Below, one piece after another: positions 521 to 31,508 of a stretch of DNA of 43,984 nucleotides; positions within the stretch are counted from its first letter, which is position 1, and every line of letters starts with the position of its first letter. A program made the position numbers and the translations under genes. Below the pieces are notes generated by a model. It had not been told where the DNA came from, searched no databases, and saw only the letters and a list, made by a program, of their open reading frames with translations. The stretch lies in the sequence record GU595417. One strand, written 5' to 3'. This DNA comes from Escherichia phage UAB_Phi78.

Positions 521-536
521 GTCCAACACGTTAGAC
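521..536 (-). repeat. dispersed 16-bp near-palindromic element (GTCTAACGTGTTGGAC family), inverted copy
   Basis: gtccaacacgttagac is the exact reverse complement of the core found at 6253, 6424 and elsewhere. Confidence 0.7.
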
Positions 537-2601: not shown

Positions 2602-3477
2602 ATGACTACTGAAAACACTGTTGTATCCGTCCGTGAAGCTGCAACTGCTGAAATCAAGGTACACTTAGATACAATTGGCACCGCCTATCTGAAAGTTGGT
2701 TCCCTCTTGAATGAACTACGCGGTGACTTTGAGAATCAACGTGACTTTCTGTCTTATGTAGAAGCTGAATTCAGCATTAAGAAGGCACAATGCTATAACC
2801 TGATGAACGTAGCGCGTTGCTTTGACGGTGACGAGCGTTTCAAAGGCGTTGCCATGCGTGTCATGCTCGCCCTTATCCCGTTCGCTGATGATGGCGCAAT
2901 CATGGATAAGGCCGCCGGACTTGCCGCTAACGGCGAACTAGACACCAAGGCCGTGAATGCACTTGTATCGCCGTCTAAGCCTGTGAAGGCTGAAGCCAGC
3001 CAATCACAAGCCGAAGACACAAAAGCCGCTGAGAAGGCCGCTCCTGTAGAATCTGAGGCATTACAAAGCGTGCCGCATGAGGTAGCACCGGAAGGCGACG
3101 AATCCGCACCGTGGGAGGATGCGCCAGCGACTACCGAGGCCGCAGCGCCTAAGCTAGATAATGCTGAGAACACCGAGAACGCGGCTATGGCTAGCCTGCT
3201 GGCGCAAATCAAGACGCTGACCGAGCAACTGACCGCAGCAAACGACCGCATCGCAGAACTGACCAGCACACGCGAGACCAAGAAGGCAGCCGCGCCTATG
3301 TTGCCTCAATTCAAATCTAAGTGCTTCTATGCTCGCTTAGGTCTGAGCGCGGAGGAGGCGGAGAAGAAAACAGCAGTTAATAAGGCTAAACGTGAACTTG
3401 TTAAGCTTGGATACGGAGAAGGTCATGAAGCTTGGGATCTGATTCAAGAGGCTGTTACCACACTTACTGAGAAATAA
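2602..3477 (+). CDS. hypothetical early protein (291 aa) with low-complexity Ala/Glu/Lys-rich centre
   Basis: Long ORF with AGGTAAG RBS-like sequence. The antisense ORF 2793..3281 is explained by its biased composition. Confidence 0.65.
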   Translation: MTTENTVVSVREAATAEIKVHLDTIGTAYLKVGSLLNELRGDFENQRDFLSYVEAEFSIKKAQCYNLMNVARCFDGDERFKGVAMRVMLALIPFADDGAIMDKAAGLAANGELDTKAVNALVSPSKPVKAEASQSQAEDTKAAEKAAPVESEALQSVPHEVAPEGDESAPWEDAPATTEAAAPKLDNAENTENAAMASLLAQIKTLTEQLTAANDRIAELTSTRETKKAAAPMLPQFKSKCFYARLGLSAEEAEKKTAVNKAKRELVKLGYGEGHEAWDLIQEAVTTLTEK

Positions 3478-3480
3478 TAG

Positions 3481-3509
3481 TTGACTTATAGAGCGTCATT
3501 AAGTAAGAT
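3481..3509 (+). promoter_or_regulatory. candidate host sigma70 promoter upstream of the RNA polymerase gene
   Basis: TTGACT (3481-3486), 17-bp spacer, TAAGAT (3504-3509), about 40 bp before the RNAP start. Confidence 0.45.
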
Positions 3510-3551
3510 GGCGCTCAATTAAGTTATCTAGCACTTAACGGAGTAAACAAG

Positions 3552-6176
3552 ATGCAAGACTTACACGCTATCCAGCTTCAATTAGAAGAAGAGATGTTTA
3601 ATGGTGGCATTCGTCGGTTCGAAGCAGACCAACAACGCCAGATTGCAGCAGGTAGCGAGAGTGACACGGCATGGAACCGCCGCCTGTTGTCCGAACTTAT
3701 TGCACCTATGGCTGAAGGTATTCAGGCTTATAAAGAGGAGTACGAAGGCAAGAAAGGTCGTGCTCCTCGCGCATTGGCATTCTTACAGTGTGTAGAAAAT
3801 GAAGTTGCAGCATACATCACTATGAAGGTAGTTATGGATATGCTGAATACTGATGTTACTCTTCAGGCTATTGCAATGAGCGTAGCGGAGCGCATCGAAG
3901 ACCAAGTGCGTTTTAGCAAGTTAGAAGGTCACGCCGCTAAATACTTTGAGAAGGTTAAGAAATCACTCAAGGCTAGCCGTACTAAGTCCTATCGTCACGC
4001 GCACAACGTAGCTGTAGTGGCTGAAAAGTCAGTAGCAGAAAAAGACGCTGACTTTGACCGTTGGGAGGCATGGCCCAAAGAGGCTCAATTGCAAATTGGT
4101 ACTACCTTGCTTGAAATCTTAGAGGGCAGCGTATTCTATAACGGTGAACCTGTATTTATGCGTGCTATGCGCACTTATGGCGGCAAGACTATTTACTACT
4201 TACAGACTTCTGAAAGTGTAGGTCAGTGGATTAGCGCGTTCAAAGAGCACGTAGCGCAATTAAGCCCAGCTTATGCTCCTTGCGTAGTCCCTCCTCGTCC
4301 TTGGAAAACCCCATTCAACGGTGGATTCCATACTGAGAAGGTAGCTAGTCGTATTCGCCTTGTAAAAGGCAACCGCGAACATGTGCGCAAGTTAACTCAA
4401 AAGCAGATGCCAAAGGTTTATAAGGCTATCAATGCCCTACAGAATACGCAATGGCAAATCAACAAGGACGTATTAGCAGTTATTGAGGAAGTGATTCGCT
4501 TAGACCTCGGTTATGGTGTGCCGTCCTTCAAGCCCCTGATTGACAAGGAGAACAAGCCAGCTAACCCTGTGCCTGTTGAATTCCAGCACCTGCGCGGTCG
4601 TGAACTGAAAGAAATGCTCTCCCCTGAGCAGTGGCAACAATTTATCAACTGGAAAGGTGAGTGTGCCCGCCTGTATACCGCAGAAACTAAGCGCGGTTCA
4701 AAGTCCGCCGCCGTTGTTCGCATGGTAGGGCAGGCCCGTAAATATAGCACCTTTGAATCCATTTACTTCGTGTACGCAATGGACAGCCGTTCCCGTGTAT
4801 ACGCGCAGTCTAGCACGCTCTCTCCGCAGTCTAACGACTTAGGCAAGGCATTACTCCGCTTTACCGAAGGACGCCCTGTAGACAGCGTAGAGGCGCTTAA
4901 ATGGTTCTGCGTGAATGGCGCTAACCTTTGGGGGTGGGACAAGAAAATTTTTGATGTACGCGTGTCTAACGTGTTGGACGAAGAGTTCCAGGATATGTGC
5001 CGCGACATCGCCGCAGACCCTCTCACGTTCACTCAATGGGCCAAAGCGGACGCGCCTTATGAATTCCTCGCATGGTGCTTTGAGTACGCTCAATACCTTG
5101 ACTTAGTAGAGGAAGGAAGGGCCGACGAGTTCCGCACACACCTGCCAGTACATCAGGACGGTTCCTGCTCCGGTATTCAGCACTATAGCGCTATGCTTCG
5201 CGATGAAGTAGGGGCCAAGGCTGTTAACCTGAAACCGTCCGATACGCCGCAGGATATTTACGGGGCGGTAGCGCAGGTTGTTATCAAGAAGAATGCGCTA
5301 TACATGGATGCAGACGATGCAACTACGTTTACTTCTGGTAGCGTAACACTGTCCGGTGCAGAACTGCGAGCAATGGCTAGCGCATGGGATAGCATTGGTA
5401 TTACCCGCAGCTTAACCAAAAAGCCAGTGATGACCTTGCCTTATGGTTCTACTCGCTTAACTTGCCGTGAATCTGTGATTGACTACATCGTAGACTTAGA
5501 GGAGAAAGAGGCGCAGAAGGCAGTAGCAGAAGGGCGGACGGCAAACAAGGTTCATCCGTTTGAAGACGACCGTCAAGACTACCTGACTCCGGGCGCAGCA
5601 TATAACTACATGACGGCATTAATCTGGCCTTCTATTTCTGAGGTAGTTAAGGCACCAATTGTAGCGATGAAGATGATACGCCAGCTTGCACGCTTTGCAG
5701 CGAAACGCAATGAAGGGCTGATGTACACCCTGCCTACTGGCTTCATCTTAGAACAGAAGATTATGGCAACCGAGATGTTACGTGTGCGTACCTGCCTGAT
5801 GGGTGATATCAAGATGTCGCTTCAGGTTGAAACGGATATAGTAGATGAAGCTGCTATGATGGGCGCAGCAGCACCTAACTTCGTACACGGTCATGATGCA
5901 AGTCACCTTATCCTTACCGTATGTGAATTGGTAGACAAAGGGGTAACTAGTATCGCGGTAATCCACGACTCTTTCGGCACTCATGCCGACAACACTCTCA
6001 CTCTTAGAGTGGCACTTAAAGGGCAGATGGTTGCAATGTATAGTGAAGGCCATGCACTTCAGAAATTACTGGACGAGCACGAAGATCGTTGGATGGTTGA
6101 TACTGGCATCGAAGTGCCTGAGCAAGGGGAGTTTGACCTTAACGAAATCATGGAATCTGAATACGTGTTTGCCTAA
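3552..6176 (+). CDS. single-subunit DNA-directed RNA polymerase (T7/SP6 type)
   Basis: 874 aa; T7-RNAP-like motifs [19 protein letters not shown] and HDSFGTH and a C-terminal ...YVFA end; 874 aa matches the known length of SP6 RNAP. Confidence 0.97.
4964..4979 (+). repeat. 16-bp near-palindromic element embedded in the RNAP coding sequence
   Basis: gtctaacgtgttggac, translated in frame as SNVLD. Confidence 0.7.
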
Positions 6177-6194
6177 TAGATTAATAAACATACA

Positions 6195-6223
6195 GGTCAG
6201 CCTTCGGGCTGGCCTTTTCTTTC
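6195..6223 (+). terminator. intrinsic terminator after the RNAP gene
   Basis: 8-bp GC-rich stem (ggtcagcc / ggctggcc) with a UUCG tetraloop, followed by ttttctttc. Confidence 0.7.
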
Positions 6224-6252
6224 ACCTACTACTTGTAACATTTCATTAACAA

Positions 6253-6268
6253 GTCTAACGTGTTGGAC
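6253..6268 (+). repeat. 16-bp near-palindromic element
   Basis: gtctaacgtgttggac, 10 bp upstream of a promoter-like sequence. Confidence 0.7.
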
Positions 6269-6277
6269 ACGATGCGG

Positions 6278-6298
6278 ATTTAAGGGACACTCTAGGAC
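6278..6298 (+). promoter_or_regulatory. degenerate SP6-type promoter-like sequence
   Basis: atttaagggacactctaggac against the consensus atttaggtgacactatagaag. Confidence 0.35.
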
Positions 6299-6423
6299 TA
6301 ACCGTCGGAGACGGAAAGTAATAGGTAGTAATAGGAAGTAGTAGGTAAGTAAGGTAACTATAGGTTACTTAGGTTACTTCTTCCTATTACCTCCTTCTTA
6401 ATAGGGAGGGCAGACACTAGGTT

Positions 6424-6439
6424 GTCTAACGTGTTGGAC
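6424..6439 (+). repeat. 16-bp near-palindromic element
   Basis: gtctaacgtgttggac, 8 bp upstream of the promoter at 6447. Confidence 0.7.
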
Positions 6440-6446
6440 AGAACCT

Positions 6447-6467
6447 ATTTACGTGACACTATTGAAC
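6447..6467 (+). promoter_or_regulatory. SP6-type phage promoter (variant)
   Basis: atttacgtgacactattgaac; close to consensus, upstream of the HNH and primase genes. Confidence 0.55.
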
Positions 6468-6492
6468 AAGATTAAACTTTCAAGGAGGTAAC

Positions 6493-6903
6493 ATGCGTAA
6501 ATCATTAGCTCAAATGGTAGAGCAAGCAGGTTATACTATACATGCAGACGGTACTATCACAGGTAAGCGCGGAAATATCTTGAAGCCTTGGCTTCAGACT
6601 TCCGGCTATCAGGTTGTGAACATTGTGTTCAAGAAGGGAACAAGAACCACAACACTTGTGCATCGTATTATCGCAAGTAAATACTGCCCATGCTCAGATC
6701 AACTAGCTAATGATGTAAACCACAAGGACGGAGACAAGACCAATAACGTCTCCTCTAATCTGGAATGGATTACACGCAGACAGAACCGCAACCACTACCT
6801 TGGGTTTGAAGATTACATGACACTTACGGCAAACGATGCCCGTAGAAAGAACAATGAGCGTACTATCGCTCGTCGTAAATTACTTAAACAACTTAATAAG
6901 TGA
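6493..6903 (+). CDS. HNH homing endonuclease
   Basis: AAGGAGGT RBS; HNH-family motif VNHKDGDKTNN...NLEWIT; free-standing between the RNAP and primase genes. Confidence 0.8.
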   Translation: MRKSLAQMVEQAGYTIHADGTITGKRGNILKPWLQTSGYQVVNIVFKKGTRTTTLVHRIIASKYCPCSDQLANDVNHKDGDKTNNVSSNLEWITRRQNRNHYLGFEDYMTLTANDARRKNNERTIARRKLLKQLNK

Positions 6904-6913
6904 GGAATAAATC

Positions 6914-7039
6914 ATGCGTACCAACTTCGAGAAAATCCGTAAAGCTAACCGTGACTTTGACATGGAAGTTAAGGGGAAGAAGTTGAACAAAGTCAAGCGC
7001 GACCGTTCTGCTAAACGTGCGTGGATGGAGGCTGCATAA
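6914..7039 (+). CDS. hypothetical small basic protein (41 aa)
   Basis: ATG with GAGGAATAA RBS; Lys/Arg-rich; below the track cutoff. Confidence 0.35.
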   Translation: MRTNFEKIRKANRDFDMEVKGKKLNKVKRDRSAKRAWMEAA

Positions 7040-7040
7040 C

Positions 7041-9020
7041 ATGGCGATTGTGAACAACATTCCTTGCCCTGAGTGCCAACGCAACGGACATGATAAATCG
7101 GGCAATCACCTCATGATATTTGAGGATGGCGCTGGTTACTGTAACCGTGGTCACTTCCATAATAGTGGTCGGCCCTACTACCACAAACCCGAAGGTGGCA
7201 TAGAAATCACTGAGCTTCCTATTACTGGCAACATTAAGTATACACCTTCACAGTTCCGTGAACTTGAAAAGGAAGGGAAGATAAGCGACCCTAAGCTGCG
7301 CGCCATTGCACTTGGCGGTATGCGTATGAAAGATCGTTGGGAGGTGATGAATGACGAAGAAAGGGCGGAGCAAGAAGCAGAATGGCAGCTTGACGTTGAG
7401 TGGTTCCTTGAACTTAAAAGGAAGAACCTTGTATCACGACACATTCGCGGAGACATTTGCGCCCTCTATGATGTCCGAGTCGGTCATGATGGAGAAGGCA
7501 AGGTTAACAGGCATTACTACCCTCGCTTCGAAGGTGGCAAACTTGTAGGCGCTAAGTGCCGGACGCTACCTAAAGACTTTAAGTTTGGACACCTAGGTAA
7601 ATTGTTCGGCAACCAAGACATGTTCGGCATGAACACAATGTCTAACGTGTTGGACAAGGGACGCCGTAAAGATACCCTGCTCATAGTAGGTGGTGAACTG
7701 GATGCCTTGGCCGCACAACAGATGCTTCTGGATTCTGCCAAAGGCACGAAGTGGGAAGGGCAACCCTATCATGTGTGGTCTATCAACAAGGGCGAGGCTT
7801 GCCTTGAAGAGATCGTGCAGAACCGTGAGCACATCTCACAATTCAAGAAGATTATGTGGGGCTTCGACGGCGATGAGGTAGGGCAGAAGCTGAACCAACA
7901 AGCGGCCCGCCTATTCCACGGTAAGTCTTATATCCTTGAGTACCCTGCTGGCTGCAAGGACGCTAACAAGGCGCTTATGGCTGGCAAATCTAAGGAGTTC
8001 GTCGATGCATGGTTCAATGCCAAGTCGTCAGATGAGGTCTTCGGTAGCCAGATTAAATCCATCGCATCTCAAAGGGATAAGCTGAAGGCTGCACGACCGG
8101 AACCGGGATTGTCTTGGCCTTGGCCTAAGCTGAACAAGATAACCCTTGGCATCCGTAAGCATCAGCTAATCATCGTCGGCGCTGGTTCTGGTGTAGGTAA
8201 GACGGAGTTCCTCCGCGAAGTAGTGAAGCATCTCATTGAAGAACACGGTGAATCTGTCGGTATTATCTCTACGGAAGACCCGATGGTTAAGGTCTCCCGC
8301 GCATTCATTGGTAAGTGGATAGATAAGCGTATTGAACTACCTCCAACCAATGACCCAAGGGAAGATGGCTACCGTGAGGTATTCGACTACACGGAGGAAG
8401 AGGCCAACGCTGCTATCGACTACGTTGCTGACACTGGTAAGCTGTTCGTGGCTGACCTTGAAGGTGACTATTCAATGGAGAAGGTAGAGCAGACTTGCCT
8501 TGAGTTCGAGGCAATGGGTATTTCCAACATCATCATTGATAACTTAACAGGAATTAAATTAGATGAACGAAATTTTGGTGGTAAAGTTGGTGCGCTTGAT
8601 GAGTGCGTCAAAAGAATCGGCACTATCAAAGACCGACATCCGGTTACTATCTTCCTTGTCTCGCACCTTACACGTCCTTCGGGGCAACGTACCTCACACG
8701 AAGAAGGTGGCGAGGTTATCCTTTCTGACTTCCGAGGCTCAGGAGCTATCGGATTCTGGGCTTCTTACGCCTTGGGGATTGAGCGTAATACAAGGGCTGA
8801 AACGCTTGATGAAAGGACTACCACGTACATCTCATGTGTCAAAGACCGAGACCAAGGCATCTACACTGGCACTAAGGTGATGCTTAAAGGCGATGTTAGT
8901 ACAGGTAGATTGATGGAACCACAAGCACGTACTAGGTCATTTGATACAGGCGCTCCAAAAGAGCAAGCTGTACCTGATGAATTAGGTGACACTATAGAAG
9001 ATAACACACAGGAGTTTTAA
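7041..9020 (+). CDS. DNA primase/helicase (T7 gp4-like)
   Basis: N-terminal zinc ribbon CPECQ...CNRGHFH, Walker A GAGSGVGKT, and an acidic C-terminal tail ending ...DNTQEF. The track ORF begins at an upstream GTG (7017); ATG 7041 with GGAGG upstream is preferred. Confidence 0.93.
   Translation: MAIVNNIPCPECQRNGHDKSGNHLMIFEDGAGYCNRGHFHNSGRPYYHKPEGGIEITELPITGNIKYTPSQFRELEKEGKISDPKLRAIALGGMRMKDRWEVMNDEERAEQEAEWQLDVEWFLELKRKNLVSRHIRGDICALYDVRVGHDGEGKVNRHYYPRFEGGKLVGAKCRTLPKDFKFGHLGKLFGNQDMFGMNTMSNVLDKGRRKDTLLIVGGELDALAAQQMLLDSAKGTKWEGQPYHVWSINKGEACLEEIVQNREHISQFKKIMWGFDGDEVGQKLNQQAARLFHGKSYILEYPAGCKDANKALMAGKSKEFVDAWFNAKSSDEVFGSQIKSIASQRDKLKAARPEPGLSWPWPKLNKITLGIRKHQLIIVGAGSGVGKTEFLREVVKHLIEEHGESVGIISTEDPMVKVSRAFIGKWIDKRIELPPTNDPREDGYREVFDYTEEEANAAIDYVADTGKLFVADLEGDYSMEKVEQTCLEFEAMGISNIIIDNLTGIKLDERNFGGKVGALDECVKRIGTIKDRHPVTIFLVSHLTRPSGQRTSHEEGGEVILSDFRGSGAIGFWASYALGIERNTRAETLDERTTTYISCVKDRDQGIYTGTKVMLKGDVSTGRLMEPQARTRSFDTGAPKEQAVPDELGDTIEDNTQEF
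7640..7655 (+). repeat. 16-bp near-palindromic element embedded in the primase coding sequence
   Basis: gtctaacgtgttggac, again translated as SNVLD. Confidence 0.7.
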
Positions 9021-9121
9021 ATGGATGAACTAGGCTTTTGGTTGTTCATGGTTGTATGTATCGTTATGATTAACCTAGACAAACTTGCCATGCTAATTAA
9101 GTAGTGTCCTTATCAGGGCTT

Positions 9122-9137
9122 GTCCAACATGTTGGAC
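9122..9137. repeat. 16-bp element, perfect-palindrome variant
   Basis: gtccaacatgttggac is its own reverse complement. Confidence 0.7.
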
Positions 9138-9176
9138 AGGCTCTTATTAAGCACATTAACTAACTGGAGATTAACT

Positions 9177-9869
9177 ATGAAGCTTAACTTAAAAGTAGGT
9201 GAACGTGTACGTAATATTCGTGTTGGATCTGCACGCGCAGGGTGGCAAGGTGCCGTCATCGTTGTAACAGAGGAGGAGTACGAAGTTCGATGGGATTGCG
9301 GAGAGAAGCAGGCTTATCTTCGTCGCTTCTCACACAAGAACCTTGAGCGCACACATGTAGCAAGCAAATGCACCTGTGTACACGATGAACTGTGTGACCG
9401 CTGTGCTCGTCAAGTCAGTAAGGCACTGACATTCATGGAGCGGTATGGTGCAGGTCACAAGACACTTGCGGAAGCAGCGTGGAATGTGCTCACGATCGAA
9501 CGCTCTAATGGTCGCAAGGTACTGAAGCGTGAGCGTCGTAATGTGATCACAGGCCAGACACAAGCAGAAATGCAAGCACAGTACGGGCCAGCAAAGGGCG
9601 GTATCATATTCAACACCCGTACATTAGGGCGCAGTACAGGTCAAGCCTTTCGCATCTTAGGCGAGGCCATGTGTAATCCTGGTATTGCTATACGTTATGA
9701 AGATGTAGACCATGCAATATCTGAAGGTACGAGTAATAGAGTTGTATTGAACAGACACTTTGAACAGGTGTTACGTGACACTATAGGTGAGCGCAAGGGC
9801 TTTACCTTTGAGCGCGGCCATGTTACATTTAACCCTATCGTTACGGAGGAAACCTATGTCACGCAATGA
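9177..9869 (+). CDS. hypothetical protein (230 aa)
   Basis: ATG 9177 with GGAG RBS; the track ORF starts upstream at 9120 inside the palindromic element, which is unlikely to be the true start. Confidence 0.6.
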   Translation: MKLNLKVGERVRNIRVGSARAGWQGAVIVVTEEEYEVRWDCGEKQAYLRRFSHKNLERTHVASKCTCVHDELCDRCARQVSKALTFMERYGAGHKTLAEAAWNVLTIERSNGRKVLKRERRNVITGQTQAEMQAQYGPAKGGIIFNTRTLGRSTGQAFRILGEAMCNPGIAIRYEDVDHAISEGTSNRVVLNRHFEQVLRDTIGERKGFTFERGHVTFNPIVTEETYVTQ

Positions 9870-10062
9870 CAGCAAGCACAGCCTGAAGTTCCTTGAGCAG
9901 CATGAAGACCTTGCAGCAAAGGTAACTAACCAAGCATTCCTGTTTGCACAACTCACACTGGCTGAAGCTAAGAAGAACAGCCTTACTCGTGAACAGATTA
10001 TTAAGGAAGGTTGCCGTGGTGCAACTCGTCGTATTAAGAACCACAGAAGTGGTGCTCGCTAG
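9856..10062 (+). CDS. hypothetical protein (68 aa)
   Basis: ATG 9856 with GGAGGAA RBS; start overlaps the end of the upstream gene. Confidence 0.5.
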   Translation: MSRNDSKHSLKFLEQHEDLAAKVTNQAFLFAQLTLAEAKKNSLTREQIIKEGCRGATRRIKNHRSGAR

Positions 10063-10079
10063 TTAATAAGTCGTGGCTT

Positions 10080-10095
10080 GTCTAACATGTTGGAC
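10080..10095 (+). repeat. 16-bp near-palindromic element
   Basis: gtctaacatgttggac. Confidence 0.7.
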
Positions 10096-10220
10096 AGGTC
10101 ACTATCATATTAATTGGAGGAATTACTGTATGATTAATTACGATTCTGATTGGGATTACGAAGATTCATTACAGCCTGAACCGGAGACACCAGACTACAA
10201 GTTTGAAACGGAGGCAATGT

Positions 10221-13641: not shown

Positions 13642-14451
13642 ATGGCTCGTAATGAATTTAACTTTGGTGCTGAAATTGCCACTTCAACTGGTGGGGTATT
13701 CAAGAACCCAGATGTTGGCGACCATGAAGCTGTTATCTCAGGCATCATTCATGTTGGTTCCTTTCAAGATATATTCAAGAAAGGTAACACTACTGAAGTG
13801 AAGAAGCCAGCTAACTTTGTACTGGTCAAGGTTGTGCTGATGGGCGATGAAGACAAGAACGATGATGACTCTCGCATGGAGCAGTGGATGGCTGTGCCGC
13901 TGAAGTCAGGCGACAAGGCTACGCTTACCAAGTTCCTGAATGCAGTTGACCCGCGTGAGCAGCTTGGAGGTTTCGATGACTTCATTGGAGAATGCATGAC
14001 CGTAAGCATGGTTGGCGATGACAAAGGTGGTAAGAATGAAGATGGCACCTTCAAGTATGTTAACTGGAAGGGATTCGGCGGTATGCCGGATAAGCTGAAG
14101 AAGCTGGTACTGGCTCAGGTTGAAGAGGAAGGTCTGACCATGACAGGTCACATCACCTTCGACAAGCTGACCAAAGACATCATCGACTCTATCCCTGCAC
14201 ACCTTGTCCGTCAGTACCTGCTAAATGAGACACCTCGTGGCAAGAACCTGTCAGTAGCTGGCTCTCACGTAGAGACTATCATTGCTGAAGCTCGTGCCGC
14301 TGACCCTGAGTGGAAGAAGGCCAAGAAGAAAGACAATGACGCTACACCGGAAGACCGTAAGCCGCTAGACACCGGCGCTGCTGTTCCGCAGGAAGTGCCG
14401 GAAGCGCAGAATGCCCCGGCACCTGCTATGGATGAAGATGCTGAGTATTAA
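13642..14451 (+). CDS. hypothetical protein with acidic C-terminal tail (candidate ssDNA-binding protein)
   Basis: AAGGAGG RBS; 269 aa; C-terminus ...PAMDEDAEY is acidic with an aromatic last residue, as in T7 gp2.5. The functional assignment is inference only. Confidence 0.55.
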   Translation: MARNEFNFGAEIATSTGGVFKNPDVGDHEAVISGIIHVGSFQDIFKKGNTTEVKKPANFVLVKVVLMGDEDKNDDDSRMEQWMAVPLKSGDKATLTKFLNAVDPREQLGGFDDFIGECMTVSMVGDDKGGKNEDGTFKYVNWKGFGGMPDKLKKLVLAQVEEEGLTMTGHITFDKLTKDIIDSIPAHLVRQYLLNETPRGKNLSVAGSHVETIIAEARAADPEWKKAKKKDNDATPEDRKPLDTGAAVPQEVPEAQNAPAPAMDEDAEY

Positions 14452-14687: not shown

Positions 14688-14703
14688 GTCTAACGCGTTG
14701 GAC
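14688..14703 (+). repeat. 16-bp near-palindromic element
   Basis: gtctaacgcgttggac, 16 bp upstream of the promoter at 14720. Confidence 0.7.
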
Positions 14704-14719
14704 AAAATGGTATCCTCTT

Positions 14720-14740
14720 ATTTAGGGGACACTATAGAAG
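14720..14740 (+). promoter_or_regulatory. SP6-type phage promoter (one mismatch)
   Basis: atttaggggacactatagaag. Confidence 0.85.
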
Positions 14741-14792
14741 AGAGAATTTTAATCGGCGATAATGCCACCATTAACAGAAGGAGAATTTAAAT

Positions 14793-15161
14793 ATGTTCAC
14801 TATCGAAACTATCGTAAACCGTGTTGTTAAAGGCGCTACCCTGGTATCCGTTGAGTCTTTCATTATCGTCGATGAAGCTGGCTCGCTGGTAGCTGGTACT
14901 AAGGCTTATGATACCCGTGAAGAAGCTCAGGCTAAGATTGACAGCATGGGTAACTTTGCTGCTGGTCTGGAGTTCGCACGTGCTTGCTTCCCGGAGCAGG
15001 CTGACAAAGCTCAGATTGGTAAGGCTAACATCGTAGCTGAATATCTGGACTGGATTGAAGCAGGTAAGCCTGTGAAAGAAGCTAAGTCTGCTGAAGTTGT
15101 TGAAGCTGCTGCCGAAGAAGCTCCGGTTGCTGCTCAGGTGAGCGAAGAAGAAGAGTTCTAA
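14793..15161 (+). CDS. hypothetical protein with acidic C-terminal tail (122 aa)
   Basis: GAAGGAGAA RBS; ends ...SEEEEF; followed directly by a strong terminator. Confidence 0.65.
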   Translation: MFTIETIVNRVVKGATLVSVESFIIVDEAGSLVAGTKAYDTREEAQAKIDSMGNFAAGLEFARACFPEQADKAQIGKANIVAEYLDWIEAGKPVKEAKSAEVVEAAAEEAPVAAQVSEEEEF

Positions 15162-17886: not shown

Positions 17887-17971
17887 AAAGGGCTAGGTAA
17901 GACTTTACTTGCTGGCGTATCCAAACGGTATTTCACTAGACCTTGATTGTATAGTGAATGGAGGAATTAAT

Positions 17972-18421
17972 ATGGCTAAATTTAAAGTAGGTGATGAAGT
18001 TAAGCGTAAAGAAGATGACTATAGTGAAGCATGGCTTGATGGATGTAGAGAGGGTAGATTCAGTCCAAACGATGTCATGGTTGTGGAAAAGGTATCAGTA
18101 TCTGGTTCTTTGATTACACTCCGAGGTGTGACTGGGGCTTGGGTTGCTGAGAGTTTTGAACTGTTTCATAAGAAGGAAGACTCTTGTGACATGGTAATGA
18201 ACCCTAAACACTATGAATTCTTCGAAGGAGTAGAGGCAATCACAATCATTGCCCGTAGCATGACCGAGAAGCAATTCGCTGGTTACTGTATGGGTAACGC
18301 TTTGAAGTATCGTCTACGTGCAGGTAAGAAGCTCAATACTGAGGAAGATCTGAAGAAAGCAGACTACTACAAAGACCTGTTCCAGAAGCATCGCCATGAA
18401 TGTATCGATGAGGATCTCTAA
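17972..18421 (+). CDS. hypothetical protein (149 aa)
   Basis: ATG 17972 with GGAGGAA RBS; the track ORF starts further upstream at 17909. Confidence 0.55.
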   Translation: MAKFKVGDEVKRKEDDYSEAWLDGCREGRFSPNDVMVVEKVSVSGSLITLRGVTGAWVAESFELFHKKEDSCDMVMNPKHYEFFEGVEAITIIARSMTEKQFAGYCMGNALKYRLRAGKKLNTEEDLKKADYYKDLFQKHRHECIDEDL

Positions 18422-28505: not shown

Positions 28506-31442
28506 ATGGCAATTGAACGTCAAGCTGTACAGGGCTTACGCCGAGTGCAGTCTACTGGTGGGCCAAGTGCTGCTAGTTTTGCGACTCGTCAGGTTGGGGT
28601 GCAAGAGACTAGTGCATCTGGTAGCCGCTTTCTTGAAGACCTTGTAAATGCTGCTGGCAGTTTGGCGACTGTCACTACTTCTATCCTGAACCAAAGGGTG
28701 GAAGATGATAAGGTACGACAATACAACCGGGCGTTAACTGGCCTGATGCCAACTGAAGATGCAACGGTTGGTGGCGCTCGCGCACACATGCTTGTCAGCT
28801 TACAAAATGACATCATCGCGCAAACCATGCAACTGTCCGATGATGCACAGCGTTTTGATGGTGATGACAGCCAATGGGAAGATCACGTTATCAACGCACG
28901 CATGGCTGTTCAAGACCGCCTGTGGGATACCTACCCTGAACTGCGTGGAGATAAGGAGTCCATGCGGGTAGTAACTAACGCCTTCATGGAGCAGCAACCT
29001 AAGATCTTTGCAGCAAGAGAGACTGCCAAGTTGAAGCAGGAAGCTGAATCTCGTATCAAGTCTATGGAATCTCGCATTCTGTTGGCTACACGTGATGTTC
29101 CTGGAGAAGCTATGGGTGATGCCTTGAATCAGTTGCAGAAAGAAGCTATGGCTATGCAAATCACCAAGCAGGAGTTTGATGCGCTGGTTTCTCAGTTGGC
29201 ATCTAATCGTGCAGCTATTGGTGATGATTCTATGATTCAAGGAACCAAGGCTCTCAAGGATGAGAATGGAGTGTCACTTTATGACCGAGTAGGTCAGTTG
29301 CAGACAGGTGAGATTCAGGCCAACCGAACATGGGCGGCGCAGAACCAAGTGGCGCTCTTTGAGAAGAAGGATGCTGCAATCAAAGCCTTTGAGGCTGGAC
29401 AGCTTAACCGTGAGCAGCTACTTCAGGTTATGCAGAACCATAATGAAATCTCAGGGGGCACTGCTTGGTCTGATAGCGAGATCAAATCTTTATTTGATAG
29501 GCAAGCTAAGGTTCGTGCTGAGTCTGCCAAACTAGAAGACTTGGTGGCCCGTGGTGAACATGGCTCTCCTTTAGGCTTGCAAGACATCAGCAAGGAAGAC
29601 CGCAAGGCGTATGCTGGTGCATTGGTTGATGCCTACACCAAGTTGGCCAATGACGAGATAACTCGTACCGGAGCTACTGGTGAAGAAGCTGAGGCCATCC
29701 GTGGACGCTATGAGCAGATGCGATACGCCAAGCTGGGGCAGCAGTTGATTGAAGACCCCATCATCAAAGAACGATATGGCTCGCTAATGCAACTATCTTC
29801 TGCCAACCTGAAAGATATGAAGGTTGAACCTGAAGCATTACAGACTATTATGCGAGCACGTGATTCTATCCCGGAAGATGCACGCCGGGCGGTGATGGGT
29901 GACAAGGAGTATGCCTTTGCGGAGAACTATGACTTGGCTACACGCATGGGTTATACGCCGGGGCAGGCCATAGAGTTTGCACAGAATGCATCGCGTGGCG
30001 ATAAGCTTCCCGGTTCTGTTATGAAAGAATTGAATGATGAAGTCGATGGTGTAGTTAGCGATGTGGCTAGTGGTAGCTGGCTTACGCGTGGCGACAACAT
30101 GAGCGACATGGGACGTGATCTTATGTTAGAAGAGGCAAACCAGATTGCCCGCTCTATGAAGGTTGCAGGTCATAACAATGACACCATTAAGCGACATCTT
30201 AAATCTTTCCTACAGAATCAGTACACTCAACTATCTGAAGGTTTCTTCACTCAAGGTGTTCTGGTCAAAGGTGATGTGAGAACGCTAGGTGACACTATAG
30301 GCACCAACCAAGGAGACGTACCTACGGTATTACGTCAGTACCTTGACAACCATAAGCAAGCCTTGCTGGATGCATCTGGCGGTATGGAAGAAGGAGACTT
30401 GTACTTTGATGTAGACTCTAAGCGCGGTATGTTTACAATACGTGCTGGTTCTGGTCGTGTACCAGTTACTCCAGCTATGCCTTTGTCTGAAATCAAAGGA
30501 CAGGACTTACTGAAGGAGCACTACGAGAAGGCAGTGAAAGAGCGCGATGAGGCTAAGAAGAACTTTGAAGCTAATCAGATGCGTATGTGGGGTGCTGGCG
30601 GGTATCAAGCTCCTGCACCAGAAAAGACTACAGCTAAGACTGTAGGTTCCCGTGGTATCGCTGACTTCCTCATGTCACCAGCCTTTGCATCAGGTGAGAA
30701 TCTACCTTCCAACTTTGAATTCAACTACAAGAGGAATAACATGGACTTCTACAATTATGTAGCTAAGACCGAGAACGGGGCCAACGTAGGGTTCGACCGA
30801 GTAGCTGGTGTATACACTCCGTACAAAGATGCACACGGTCAATCTGTGGGCTACGGTCACTTCCTCACGGAGGAGGAGAAGAAGAATGGATACATCACTA
30901 TTGGCGAAGATAAAGTACCATTTGCACCGGGACAATCTCAGTTAACACCTGAGCGTGCAATGCGCCTGCTTGAGCAGGACATGAAGAGTCACGTACCTAG
31001 CACAAAGGATTGGGCTGTACCTTTTGATGCAATGCATCCGGGAGTGCAACGTGGCCTCATGGACTTGTCTTATAACTTAGGCAAGGCTGGCATCAAGAAT
31101 GCGCCAAAGGCTTATGCAGCATTCAAGGCTGGCAAGTTCACTGATGGGTTTATCGAGATGCTGTCTACTGCATCTACTGAAGGTAAGCGCAGTTCAGGTC
31201 TGCTAGTTCGCAGGGCAGAAGCCTATAACCTTGCACAAAGCGGAGGTGCTGTTCCTAAGATTAGCGAAGTGGAGACGAGGGAAGATGGCTCCATGTACGT
31301 TAGGTTCTCAGGTAACATGTCAGAAGCATTTGTGAGCAAGTCTATCCTTGGCAAGATAGGCAAAGATGGGTGGATGGAAGTCTACCAGCCTAAAGCAGGA
31401 GCACTTGCAAGCGGCACCAAAGTGGGTCGCATTAAACTGTAG
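28506..31442 (+). CDS. internal virion protein with C-terminal lysozyme-like domain
   Basis: 978 aa; YKDAHGQSVGYGHFLT matches the T4-lysozyme-family pattern YKD..G....G.GH.LT. Confidence 0.8.
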   Translation: MAIERQAVQGLRRVQSTGGPSAASFATRQVGVQETSASGSRFLEDLVNAAGSLATVTTSILNQRVEDDKVRQYNRALTGLMPTEDATVGGARAHMLVSLQNDIIAQTMQLSDDAQRFDGDDSQWEDHVINARMAVQDRLWDTYPELRGDKESMRVVTNAFMEQQPKIFAARETAKLKQEAESRIKSMESRILLATRDVPGEAMGDALNQLQKEAMAMQITKQEFDALVSQLASNRAAIGDDSMIQGTKALKDENGVSLYDRVGQLQTGEIQANRTWAAQNQVALFEKKDAAIKAFEAGQLNREQLLQVMQNHNEISGGTAWSDSEIKSLFDRQAKVRAESAKLEDLVARGEHGSPLGLQDISKEDRKAYAGALVDAYTKLANDEITRTGATGEEAEAIRGRYEQMRYAKLGQQLIEDPIIKERYGSLMQLSSANLKDMKVEPEALQTIMRARDSIPEDARRAVMGDKEYAFAENYDLATRMGYTPGQAIEFAQNASRGDKLPGSVMKELNDEVDGVVSDVASGSWLTRGDNMSDMGRDLMLEEANQIARSMKVAGHNNDTIKRHLKSFLQNQYTQLSEGFFTQGVLVKGDVRTLGDTIGTNQGDVPTVLRQYLDNHKQALLDASGGMEEGDLYFDVDSKRGMFTIRAGSGRVPVTPAMPLSEIKGQDLLKEHYEKAVKERDEAKKNFEANQMRMWGAGGYQAPAPEKTTAKTVGSRGIADFLMSPAFASGENLPSNFEFNYKRNNMDFYNYVAKTENGANVGFDRVAGVYTPYKDAHGQSVGYGHFLTEEEKKNGYITIGEDKVPFAPGQSQLTPERAMRLLEQDMKSHVPSTKDWAVPFDAMHPGVQRGLMDLSYNLGKAGIKNAPKAYAAFKAGKFTDGFIEMLSTASTEGKRSSGLLVRRAEAYNLAQSGGAVPKISEVETREDGSMYVRFSGNMSEAFVSKSILGKIGKDGWMEVYQPKAGALASGTKVGRIKL
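30282..30303 (+). promoter_or_regulatory. internal SP6-type promoter-like sequence inside the internal virion protein gene
   Basis: acgctaggtgacactataggc matches the consensus core TAGGTGACACTATAG exactly, with a divergent upstream end. Confidence 0.5.
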
Positions 31443-31458
31443 TGTCATACTCAAGGTT

Positions 31459-31474
31459 GTCTAACACGTTGGAC
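31459..31474 (+). repeat. 16-bp near-palindromic element
   Basis: gtctaacacgttggac in the 66-bp gap between the two large internal virion protein genes. Confidence 0.7.
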
Positions 31475-31508
31475 AGCCTTTATGAATGACATTAACTAAG
31501 GAGGTAAC

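Follow-up and report, generated by a model that had tools for sequence, protein, structure and literature searches.

The plasmid RK2 carries 12 operators (OB) for its protein KorB and also encodes KfrA, in which an N-terminal DNA-binding domain is combined with a long coiled coil. In phage N15, the centromere palindromes of SopB are dispersed through the genome. The phages of the T7 group are textbook systems whose timing is attributed to promoters, terminators, RNase III sites and polymerase inhibitors. KorB is a ParB-family helix-turn-helix protein that recognizes a short repeated palindrome and serves as a global regulator, with copies of its site located beside promoters, distant from them or inside genes (PMC11790492). 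The present study concerns a palindrome of Escherichia phage UAB_Phi78 (GU595417), whose 43,984 nucleotides, termed the window, were analysed at their full length. As in the KorB/OB system, this palindrome of SP6-like phages is present in about nine copies on one replicon, some by promoters and some in genes, and the product of an early gene at 2602-3477, like KfrA, combines a predicted N-terminal DNA-binding domain with a long helix. We propose, with a probability of roughly 0.7 that is based on sequence comparison, that the sites are operators and that a dimer of this protein binds them in double-stranded DNA. In contrast to KorB, the protein contains no ParB/Srx CTPase domain and has no KorA-like partner, the replicon is a virulent T7-like phage without need for partition, and the arms of the palindrome differ and are separated by 2-3 central bases.

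Similarities extend to parS, which is also a palindrome of 16-18 bp with arms of 7-8 bases, and the N-terminal domain of the 2602-3477 protein is modelled with the DNA-binding fold of ParB. The site arm TGTCTCAC is one base away from the parS arm TGTTTCAC (PMC5961200). However, only the arms resemble parS, where they abut (8+8), whereas in the phage they are placed 2-3 bp further apart, and unlike ParB-parS or SopB of N15, the phage studied here has neither a ParA, nor a CTPase domain, nor a plasmid lifestyle. A different resemblance concerns the RNase III sites of T7, since three copies of the palindrome are located in the tips of hairpins (sites A, B and V described below) with the same two-tier shape, the flank consensus ACUCAAGG...CCUUUAUGA and an intergenic placement. 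The T7 sites R6.5 and R13, which contain a promoter in their apical part, provide a precedent for a DNA site nested in a hairpin tip. Yet the apical stems of T7 vary, whereas here we find one fixed tip that also occurs alone and within genes, with both copies in the polymerase and primase genes located outside of such hairpins. By analogy, protein and operators would work like a system of the KorB/ParB type without the protein being a ParB, and both the palindrome and the role of the protein are apparently undescribed. In a literature search that did not cover the original SP6 papers (Dobbins 2004, Scholl 2004), no description was found of the palindrome, of the function of the 2602-3477 protein or of a connection between SP6-like phages and either ParB/KorB or RNase III sites. 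The UAB_Phi78 genome paper makes no mention of the palindrome, and no function was found in the literature for DUF3102, the domain family that the N-terminal domain of the protein resembles.

Palindromic sites in UAB_Phi78 and its relatives

The window constitutes a complete SP6-like phage genome with every gene on the plus strand and is identical in sequence to the IMG/VR contig 2595698432_000001. Its segment from the RNA polymerase to the primase gene (3552-9200, 5.6 kb queried) shares about 98% identity with Salmonella phage vB_SenAt-pSL2 (Zindervirus UAB78) and 91% with SP6. The open reading frame at 3552-6176 was assigned to the phage RNA polymerase and the one at 7041-9020, whose frame opens at 7017, to the DNA primase/helicase, both because of 97-98% protein identity to their SP6 counterparts. 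Each of these genes contains the 16-mer GTCTAACGTGTTGGAC on the plus strand, at 4964-4979 in the polymerase (site R, codons 472-476) and at 7640-7655 in the primase/helicase (site P, residues 201-205), in the same codon phase (G TCT AAC GTG TTG GAC, with TCT starting at 4965 and 7641, respectively), which encodes Ser-Asn-Val-Leu-Asp. The original prediction had singled out these two copies, whose coordinates, identity and common frame were all correct, with the identity reaching 17 bases (TGTCTAACGTGTTGGAC). Although both are real, their treatment as an isolated pair did not hold, as they are part of a family-wide system with nine sites in the window.

Five of these sites are exact copies of the 16-mer (4964, 7640, 521-536 on the minus strand, 6253-6268 and 6424-6439), whereas those at 9122, 10080, 14688 and 31459 differ from it by one or two bases. 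The nine sites within 2 mismatches compare to 0.24 expected at up to 3 mismatches, and the degenerate consensus GTCYAACRYGTTRGAC is matched nine times in the window with 0 mismatches, where 0.17 matches would be expected by chance. No window sites with 1-2 mismatches to this consensus were detected, and lone half-sites in the window are not above chance (3 outside full sites, with 3.0 expected in all). Together with its flanks, the unit forms an 18-bp near-palindrome, (T/A)GTCYAAC-RY-GTTRGAC-A, of which the 16-mer is the core. Site P comprises the full 18-mer (7639-7656) and site R matches 17 of the 18 bases of this extended palindrome. The centre always reads ACRYGT, which creates two identical 8-base half-sites, GTCYAACR, and thus a symmetric dimer on duplex DNA would be expected. 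The DNA form of the site that is the candidate target of the 2602-3477 protein is TGTCTAACGTGTTGGACA.

Site L (521-536, minus strand) is found at the left end; a consensus sigma-70 promoter (570-598) lies downstream, with 33 bp between the site and the -35 hexamer. All other sites are on the plus strand. Past the polymerase gene and a terminator-like hairpin with a T-run directly after its stop codon (6194-6215), T1 (6253-6268) precedes a promoter-like sequence (6278-6300) by 9 bp and T2 (6424-6439) a phage promoter (6447-6469) by 7 bp. Site C (14688-14703) precedes the phage promoter at 14720-14742 by 16 bp, a spacing that is kept at 14-17 bp across genera. Site A (9122-9137), a perfect palindrome 3' of the primase gene, site B (10080-10095), upstream of the DNA polymerase region, and site V (31459-31474), between two internal virion protein genes, form the tips of hairpins at 9100-9163, 10058-10121 and 31438-31499, respectively.

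Orthologous positions are occupied in the SP6-like phages (Molineuxvirinae) SP6, pSL2, BP12B, Pectobacterium phage POP72, Lelliottia phage phD2B and K1-5 with its relatives, and Erwinia phages, Proteus phages and uncultivated relatives likewise carry copies at matching places. Within the family, all genera examined have a site close to the left end, and further sites are found once or twice just 3' of the polymerase gene (three times in the most distant clade), 3' of the primase gene, 5' of the DNA polymerase gene, 5' of the gene-20 promoter, between the two internal virion protein genes and within coding sequences, namely those of the polymerase, the primase, the nucleotide kinase or the ligase. 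The sequence around each site is collinear across relatives. In the T7 outgroup no repeated palindrome was found, and a counterpart of the 2602-3477 protein is also absent there. The kinase copy is an extra coding site of four relatives (L001 17752, L002 18354, L005 19666 and L008 18133, encoding SN[M/T]LD in the same frame), and the corresponding region of the window (open reading frame 17909-18421) contains no site.

Constraint on the sites within genes

In the primase genes of the 15 phages with the GTCYAAC variant of the site, the codons AAC GTG TTG GAC show zero synonymous differences compared to a gene background of 0.42 per comparable column, and only TCT/TCC varies, as permitted by the consensus. 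The segment of six codons ranks 5 of 485 for synonymous conservation (top 1%). The alignment of orthologues that had been suggested as a check on the original prediction has thus uncovered unusually conserved synonymous positions in the 16-mer of the primase. Given the peptide and the codon usage of the respective phages, a perfect site would be encountered with a probability of 0.004-0.014 in the primase, where it is observed in 15/15 sequences, and of 0.002-0.007 in the polymerase, where it is observed in 6/9 of the sequences that encode xSNVLD.

The peptide itself varies in primases without the site, where it is replaced by TAFLD in Proteus phages, RDVMA in Erwinia phages and PYVIE in L037. 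In the polymerase of the K1-5 group, ANVLD is encoded with CTG and GAT and the site is absent, and in the polymerase of L067/L068 a perfect 17-bp site is placed at the same spot, with the peptide SRCET instead of SNVLD. As judged from these sequences, the peptide is dispensable, and it is the DNA string rather than the peptide that is selected in both genes. Amino acids have changed together with the site: the primase of the K1-5 group contains TCT CAC GTG TTA GAC (Asn to His), where the left arm was converted and the right arm halts at TTA, since GTG TGA GAC would introduce a stop codon. The same hybrid is found in the polymerase and ligase genes of Erwinia phages, with the polymerase copy reading GTCTCAC-GT-GTTAGAC (N to H). 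The copy in the polymerase has decayed in SP6, with two mismatches to the degenerate consensus that originate from three synonymous changes, it contains one mismatch in BP12B, and the K1-5 group, the Proteus phages and L030-32 lack it. The initial suggestion of a constraint at the level of the nucleic acid, such as a protein-binding site, is in our sequence comparisons strongly supported by the frozen synonymous positions, by amino acids that follow the variant of the site and by a candidate protein that co-varies with it.

About nine independent coding copies of the family, four or five of them in L037, are in the phase G TCN ... GAC, with the 17-bp copy of L067/L068 as the exception. One of the alternative frames holds TAA in the common variant and the other encodes Leu-Thr-Cys-Trp, or Val-Tyr-x-Cys-Arg in L037. 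The frame that is used encodes Ser-Asn/Thr-x-Leu/Val-Asp and places the degenerate positions of the site at the third positions of codons. We infer that the shared frame reflects coding tolerance rather than a translational signal and that the coding sites occupy tolerant peptide segments in the one frame that gives harmless residues (Ser-Asn-Val-Leu-Asp). An in-frame ATG that directly precedes the primase copy is present in the window and recalls the in-frame ATG inside the primase/helicase gene of T7 (4A/4B), but its proposed use as an internal start is not borne out, as relatives contain ATG, TTG or CTG at this position and neither a Shine-Dalgarno sequence nor a purine-rich tract was found before 7638. 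At residue 200 of 659, this ATG is located in the catalytic region of the primase and does not match the domain boundary of the T7 type, and its TG is explained as flank of the 18-bp palindrome (TGTC...GACA).

Variants of the site and the candidate binding protein

Nearly all copies within a genome are of one variant, which has switched in concert between clades. The variant GTCYAAC-N2 is found in Zindervirus, POP72, phD2B and several uncultivated clades, GTCTCAC-N2 in the K1-5 group and Erwinia phages, GTCCAAC-N3 in Proteus phages, GTCTCAC-N3 in L067/L068, GTCTACA-N2 in L037 and its relatives and GTCTAGT-N2 in L071/L075, with the ends GTC...GAC kept throughout. Since such concerted switches occur between phages of closely related hosts, they point to a reader that is encoded by the phage. 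Single GTCCAAC-type sites inside GTCTCAC-type phages (L003 9570, L014 3222 and L025 17412) were probably imported by recombination, and a genome thus tolerates some mismatched sites.

The candidate for this reader is the protein of 291 residues encoded at 2602-3477 on the plus strand, just upstream of the polymerase gene. It is a homologue of SP6 gp7 and belongs to phrog_4571, a family annotated as of unknown function. A gp7-like gene is present in every clade with sites and absent from T7, which itself has none. The predicted structure consists of an all-helical N-terminal domain (residues 10-122, modelled with confidence), a disordered acidic linker, a 43-residue helix (188-230) and a small conserved C-terminal domain. 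In the model, the N-terminal domain contains a DUF3102 or ParB-KorB-like helix-turn-helix (46-57, turn, 61-74). Its best matches are KorB in a structure comparison with the PDB and DUF3102 proteins in BFVD (probability 1.0), and the modelled domain thus has the ParB/KorB-type helix-turn-helix fold. On the level of sequence, 11/19 N-terminal domains of the family match DUF3102 (PF11300), all below the gathering threshold (best E value 7.6e-5), whereas the homologue P0220, which matches the profile of the family itself with an E value of 3.9e-17, passes the gathering score of DUF3102 with 25.0 vs 24.4 bits, and two members show weak matches to KfrA_N. A Foldseek search of the full-length model against the PDB gave no significant match, and with the protein sequence as query neither PDB chains nor NCBIfam yielded one. 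Its action as a dimer is implied by the symmetry of the site, and the long helix 188-230 is a predicted feature that might accompany it. The C-terminal 60 residues (window 3292-3477) contain a strongly conserved sequence, APMLPQFKS.C.YARLGLS...KA.RELVKLGYG.GH, for which a J-domain was considered and discarded, as HPD is absent and no DnaJ match was obtained in Pfam.

The codons of the predicted recognition helix (residues 61-74, KAQCYNLMNVARCF) are located at 2782-2823 on the plus strand, with those of Asn66 at 2797-2799. Residue 66, which is part of the second helix (…KKAQCY-N-LMNVA…), separates the half-site types without exception at 72 loci. All phages with GTCYAAC arms, the Proteus phages among them, have Asn at this position, or His in the case of SP6, whereas Lys is found in all three GTCTCAC clades (the K1-5 group, Erwinia phages and L067/L068) and Arg in combination with GTCTACA or GTCTAGT arms. 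The pairing of Asn with A:T and of Lys with C:G at half-site position 5 would be chemically sensible. Ser62 accompanies the 3-base spacer in both clades with such spacer. Columns containing a residue that is common to the three GTCTCAC clades and absent from all GTCYAAC phages were found at 2/280 positions of the gp7-like protein (66 and 102), compared to 0/872 in the RNA polymerase and 0/653 in the primase. A Pfam and PHROG scan of ten early and middle open reading frames did not detect a DNA-binding domain, and a search for other factors by unusual protein identity between Erwinia phages and K1-5, as would be left by horizontal transfer, did not reveal a candidate.

Several observations weigh against the assignment of the sites as operators of this protein. 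With an estimated p of about 0.02, the column test reaches no more than modest significance, and the co-variation is supportive but not conclusive because it is based on perhaps four or five independent switches. The assignment of the gp7-like protein is correlative. The specificity of KorB is reportedly conferred by residues outside its helix-turn-helix, as described by Khare and colleagues in 2004, and the naming of helix 61-74 as recognition helix is thus an assumption. Neither Pfam nor NCBIfam detects ParBc, the N-terminal ParB/Srx CTP-binding domain, and the helix-turn-helix domain already begins at residue 10; with the CTPase domain absent, the protein is not a canonical ParB and clamp-like sliding is not expected. 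The copy in the polymerase gene is not indispensable, as SP6 and the K1-5 group do without it. The variable distance of 0-17 bp between site and promoter reveals no single regulatory geometry. Finally, the sites 3' (right) of the polymerase gene have T or C at position 4 opposite an unchanging G, which leaves T4 with G13 as the only asymmetric form, and this form fits G-U pairing in plus-strand RNA, although a C-to-T mutation bias could be its source as well. The same bias confounds the orientation of asymmetric sites (T,C vs C,T), which is consistent to the right of the polymerase gene and mixed to its left.

Alternative explanations and possible roles

The hairpins around A, B and V are strong RNA structures of about 60 nucleotides with two tiers. 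The hairpin at 9100-9163 (plus strand, z score -6.1) contains a lower stem, an internal loop and a 13-bp upper stem, the one at 10058-10121 (plus strand) has a z score of -6.4, and the one at 31438-31499 (plus strand, -5.6) is bordered by flanks (ACUCAAGG...CCUUUAUGAAUGAC) that match the T7 site consensus. In their alignment, 96% of cells are paired, and co-variation amounts to 0.525 compared to 0.189 after shuffling and about 0.1 after sliding. Free compensatory variation in the lower stem and at the foot of the upper stem contrasts with an invariant sequence of the apical 8 pairs, which indicates that the 16-mer carries a sequence constraint that is unexplained by RNA structure. A covariance model built from the three hairpins finds its six top T7 matches 5' of genes 0.3, 18.5, 0.5, 4.7, 1.1 and 6.5 (E values 1e-5 to 0.03), which we take to be the RNase III sites R0.3, R18.5, R0.5, R4.7, R1.1 and R6.5 as reported by Dunn and Studier 1983; the T7 records examined carry no annotation of these sites. 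The hairpins that host A, B and V are ordinary T7-type RNase III-like sites. In the other six 16-mers of the window the model recognizes the tip only (the apical 16-18 bases, with 14.8 and 18.6 bits for the coding copies), and compared to shuffled sequences no significant structure was found for the coding copies (z scores of -0.97 and -0.93) or for the copies at 6253, 14688 and 521. The two-tier hairpin with conserved flanks and co-variation is thus observed for A, B and V and not at the coding copies. Two hairpins of the same shape lack the 16-mer, one at 3476-3535 just 5' of the RNA polymerase gene, similar to T7 R1 (20.1 bits, z score -4.6), and a weaker one at 2532-2585 (13.9 bits, -3.0). 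Hairpin and 16-mer are separable modules. Another long imperfect hairpin with 21-nucleotide arms is located between T1 and T2 (6323-6395), and no Rfam family matches anywhere in the window.

The strong structure of these three hairpins, the heavy co-variation in their alignment, the correspondence of the covariance model to the sites of T7 and the G-U-compatible asymmetry right of the polymerase gene would all be compatible with a function of the element as plus-strand RNA hairpin, either as a signal for processing by RNase III or another nuclease, as a stability signal or as target of an RNA-binding protein, in which case the coding copies would mark points of cleavage or pausing on the mRNAs for polymerase and primase. 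We nevertheless regard this as quite unlikely, since hairpins exist without the 16-mer, 6/9 16-mers are found outside a hairpin context and neither the coding copies nor T1, C or L fold better than shuffled sequences. On the plus strand, C-A mispairs would be formed in site L and in the polymerase copies of pSL2, POP72 and phD2B and C-U mispairs in the hybrid coding copies. A structural role would also permit free co-variation, whereas the sequence is fixed per genome and switches in concert between clades, whose hosts hardly differ in their RNase III. Moreover, the RY centre displays the symmetry of a dimer and follows no loop rule, and in several genera site L precedes the first early promoter. 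It is also unlikely that the element is a DNA site for a factor other than the 2602-3477 protein, which could be a host protein, the primase or polymerase of the phage or an unexamined small phage protein. The primase of T7 recognizes 5'-GTC-3', the ends GTC...GAC are kept in all variants and the sites cluster 3' of the polymerase gene, at the place of the T7 origin. However, a host factor is difficult to reconcile with a change of variant among phages whose hosts, Salmonella and E. coli, are close relatives, no column of the polymerase or primase partitions with the variant and no DNA-binding domain was found in the other early and middle open reading frames tested. Recognition of GTC by the primase as cause of the conserved ends is speculation without support from the column scan.

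The original prediction had also considered the copies as targets of phage HNH nucleases or as recombination hotspots, which in this case would be placed at mosaic boundaries. An HNH endonuclease gene (PF13392, phrog_959) is indeed found at 6493-6903, between the promoter adjoining T2 and the primase gene, and the genomes of the SP6 group are mosaic. This gene is a mobile insertion, because SP6 and K1-5 are without it and other relatives contain different HNH genes at the same place. Free-standing HNH genes are sporadic, whereas the sites are kept in every genome, including those of SP6 and K1-5, and nine targets of its own nuclease in one genome would be self-destructive. Nothing points to a hotspot either, as the collinear flanks at every site imply that the sites are not boundaries of exchange, and we thus consider both possibilities as very improbable. 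The loss of the polymerase copy in SP6, BP12B and the K1-5 group might suggest that the coding copies are functionless, having originated by chance or as inherited matches from a conserved SNVLD peptide. This is barely credible in light of an expectation from codon usage below 1.5%, compared to 15/15 and 6/9 observed, of amino-acid replacements that track the variant of the site and of a peptide that is not conserved where the site is absent.

In the mechanism that we propose, a dimer of the early 2602-3477 protein would bind the about nine palindromes via its ParB/KorB-type helix-turn-helix and, by analogy to KorB and KfrA of RK2, would act as a global regulator of transcription around the early-to-middle switch. 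Alternatively or additionally, it may organise the region 3' of the polymerase gene. Three of the sites precede phage promoters at distances of 0-17 bp, another one precedes the first host-type early promoter, three are placed on RNA-processing hairpins and two to four in long essential genes. Transcriptional control is, by analogy, a possible but tentative role, a role in origin function or genome organisation is somewhat less likely, and the remaining probability belongs to other roles. Less likely than not is the far-reaching proposal of a previously unrecognised genome-wide operator system, in which a CTPase-less ParB/KorB-like DUF3102 protein would bind the palindromes and bridge them via its coiled coil.

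The distribution of sites relative to promoters bears on these roles. In most genomes, the two sites following the polymerase gene and the gene-20 site are located 0-17 bp upstream of the -17 edge of a phage promoter, with centres at -25.5 to -42.5, and at -34.5, -32.5 and -41.5 in the window. The left-end site precedes a consensus sigma-70 promoter by 11-68 bp or, in the phages of Proteus and Erwinia, has a phage promoter immediately after it (L006 205-240, L036 741-775), an analogue of T7 phiOL. The matching stretch of the window looks like a decayed promoter. The entire early region transcribed by the host is enclosed by the segments 521-542 and 6418-6439, in which the site and its flanks (TAGGTT/AACCTA) make up a perfect inverted repeat of 22 bp; these flanks are also found in SP6 and K1-5. 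The two segments could be a looping pair and are one candidate for bridging by the protein, by which early transcription would be shut off or the origin region assembled. In T7 the region 3' of the polymerase gene is the primary replication origin. The densest cluster of sites (4964, 6253, 6424 and 7640) surrounds the region that corresponds to this location. The promoter-like sequence 9 bp after T1 (6278-6300) is a degenerate SP6-type promoter, ATTTAAGGGACACTCTAGGAC, and together with the promoter at 6447 provides a tandem of site and promoter pairs, resembling phi1.1A/phi1.1B of T7.

If the proposed assignment is correct, the SP6 branch would possess, in its dispersed operators and a dedicated DNA-binding protein, an additional layer of regulation or organisation. 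DUF3102, a family of about a thousand clusters at 50% identity, would receive its first functional assignment, together with a readable recognition code in which Asn, Lys or Arg at one helix position relates to the arm of the site. The need for the site would be strong enough to rewrite the protein sequence of polymerase and primase. The coding copies are a clear natural case of overlapping constraints, where essential enzymes alter amino acids to retain a DNA site. Engineering or codon-optimisation of the SP6 polymerase, or the recoding of phages for therapy, would silently destroy such sites.

Besides the palindromes and their candidate reader, the window encodes two conserved proteins of unknown function (13642-14451 and 14793-15161), whose acidic tails end on an aromatic residue (...MDEDAEY and ...VSEEEEF). 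In T7, the C-terminal tails of gp2.5 and gp4 contact the DNA polymerase, and by analogy both products may be single-strand-binding or replisome proteins.

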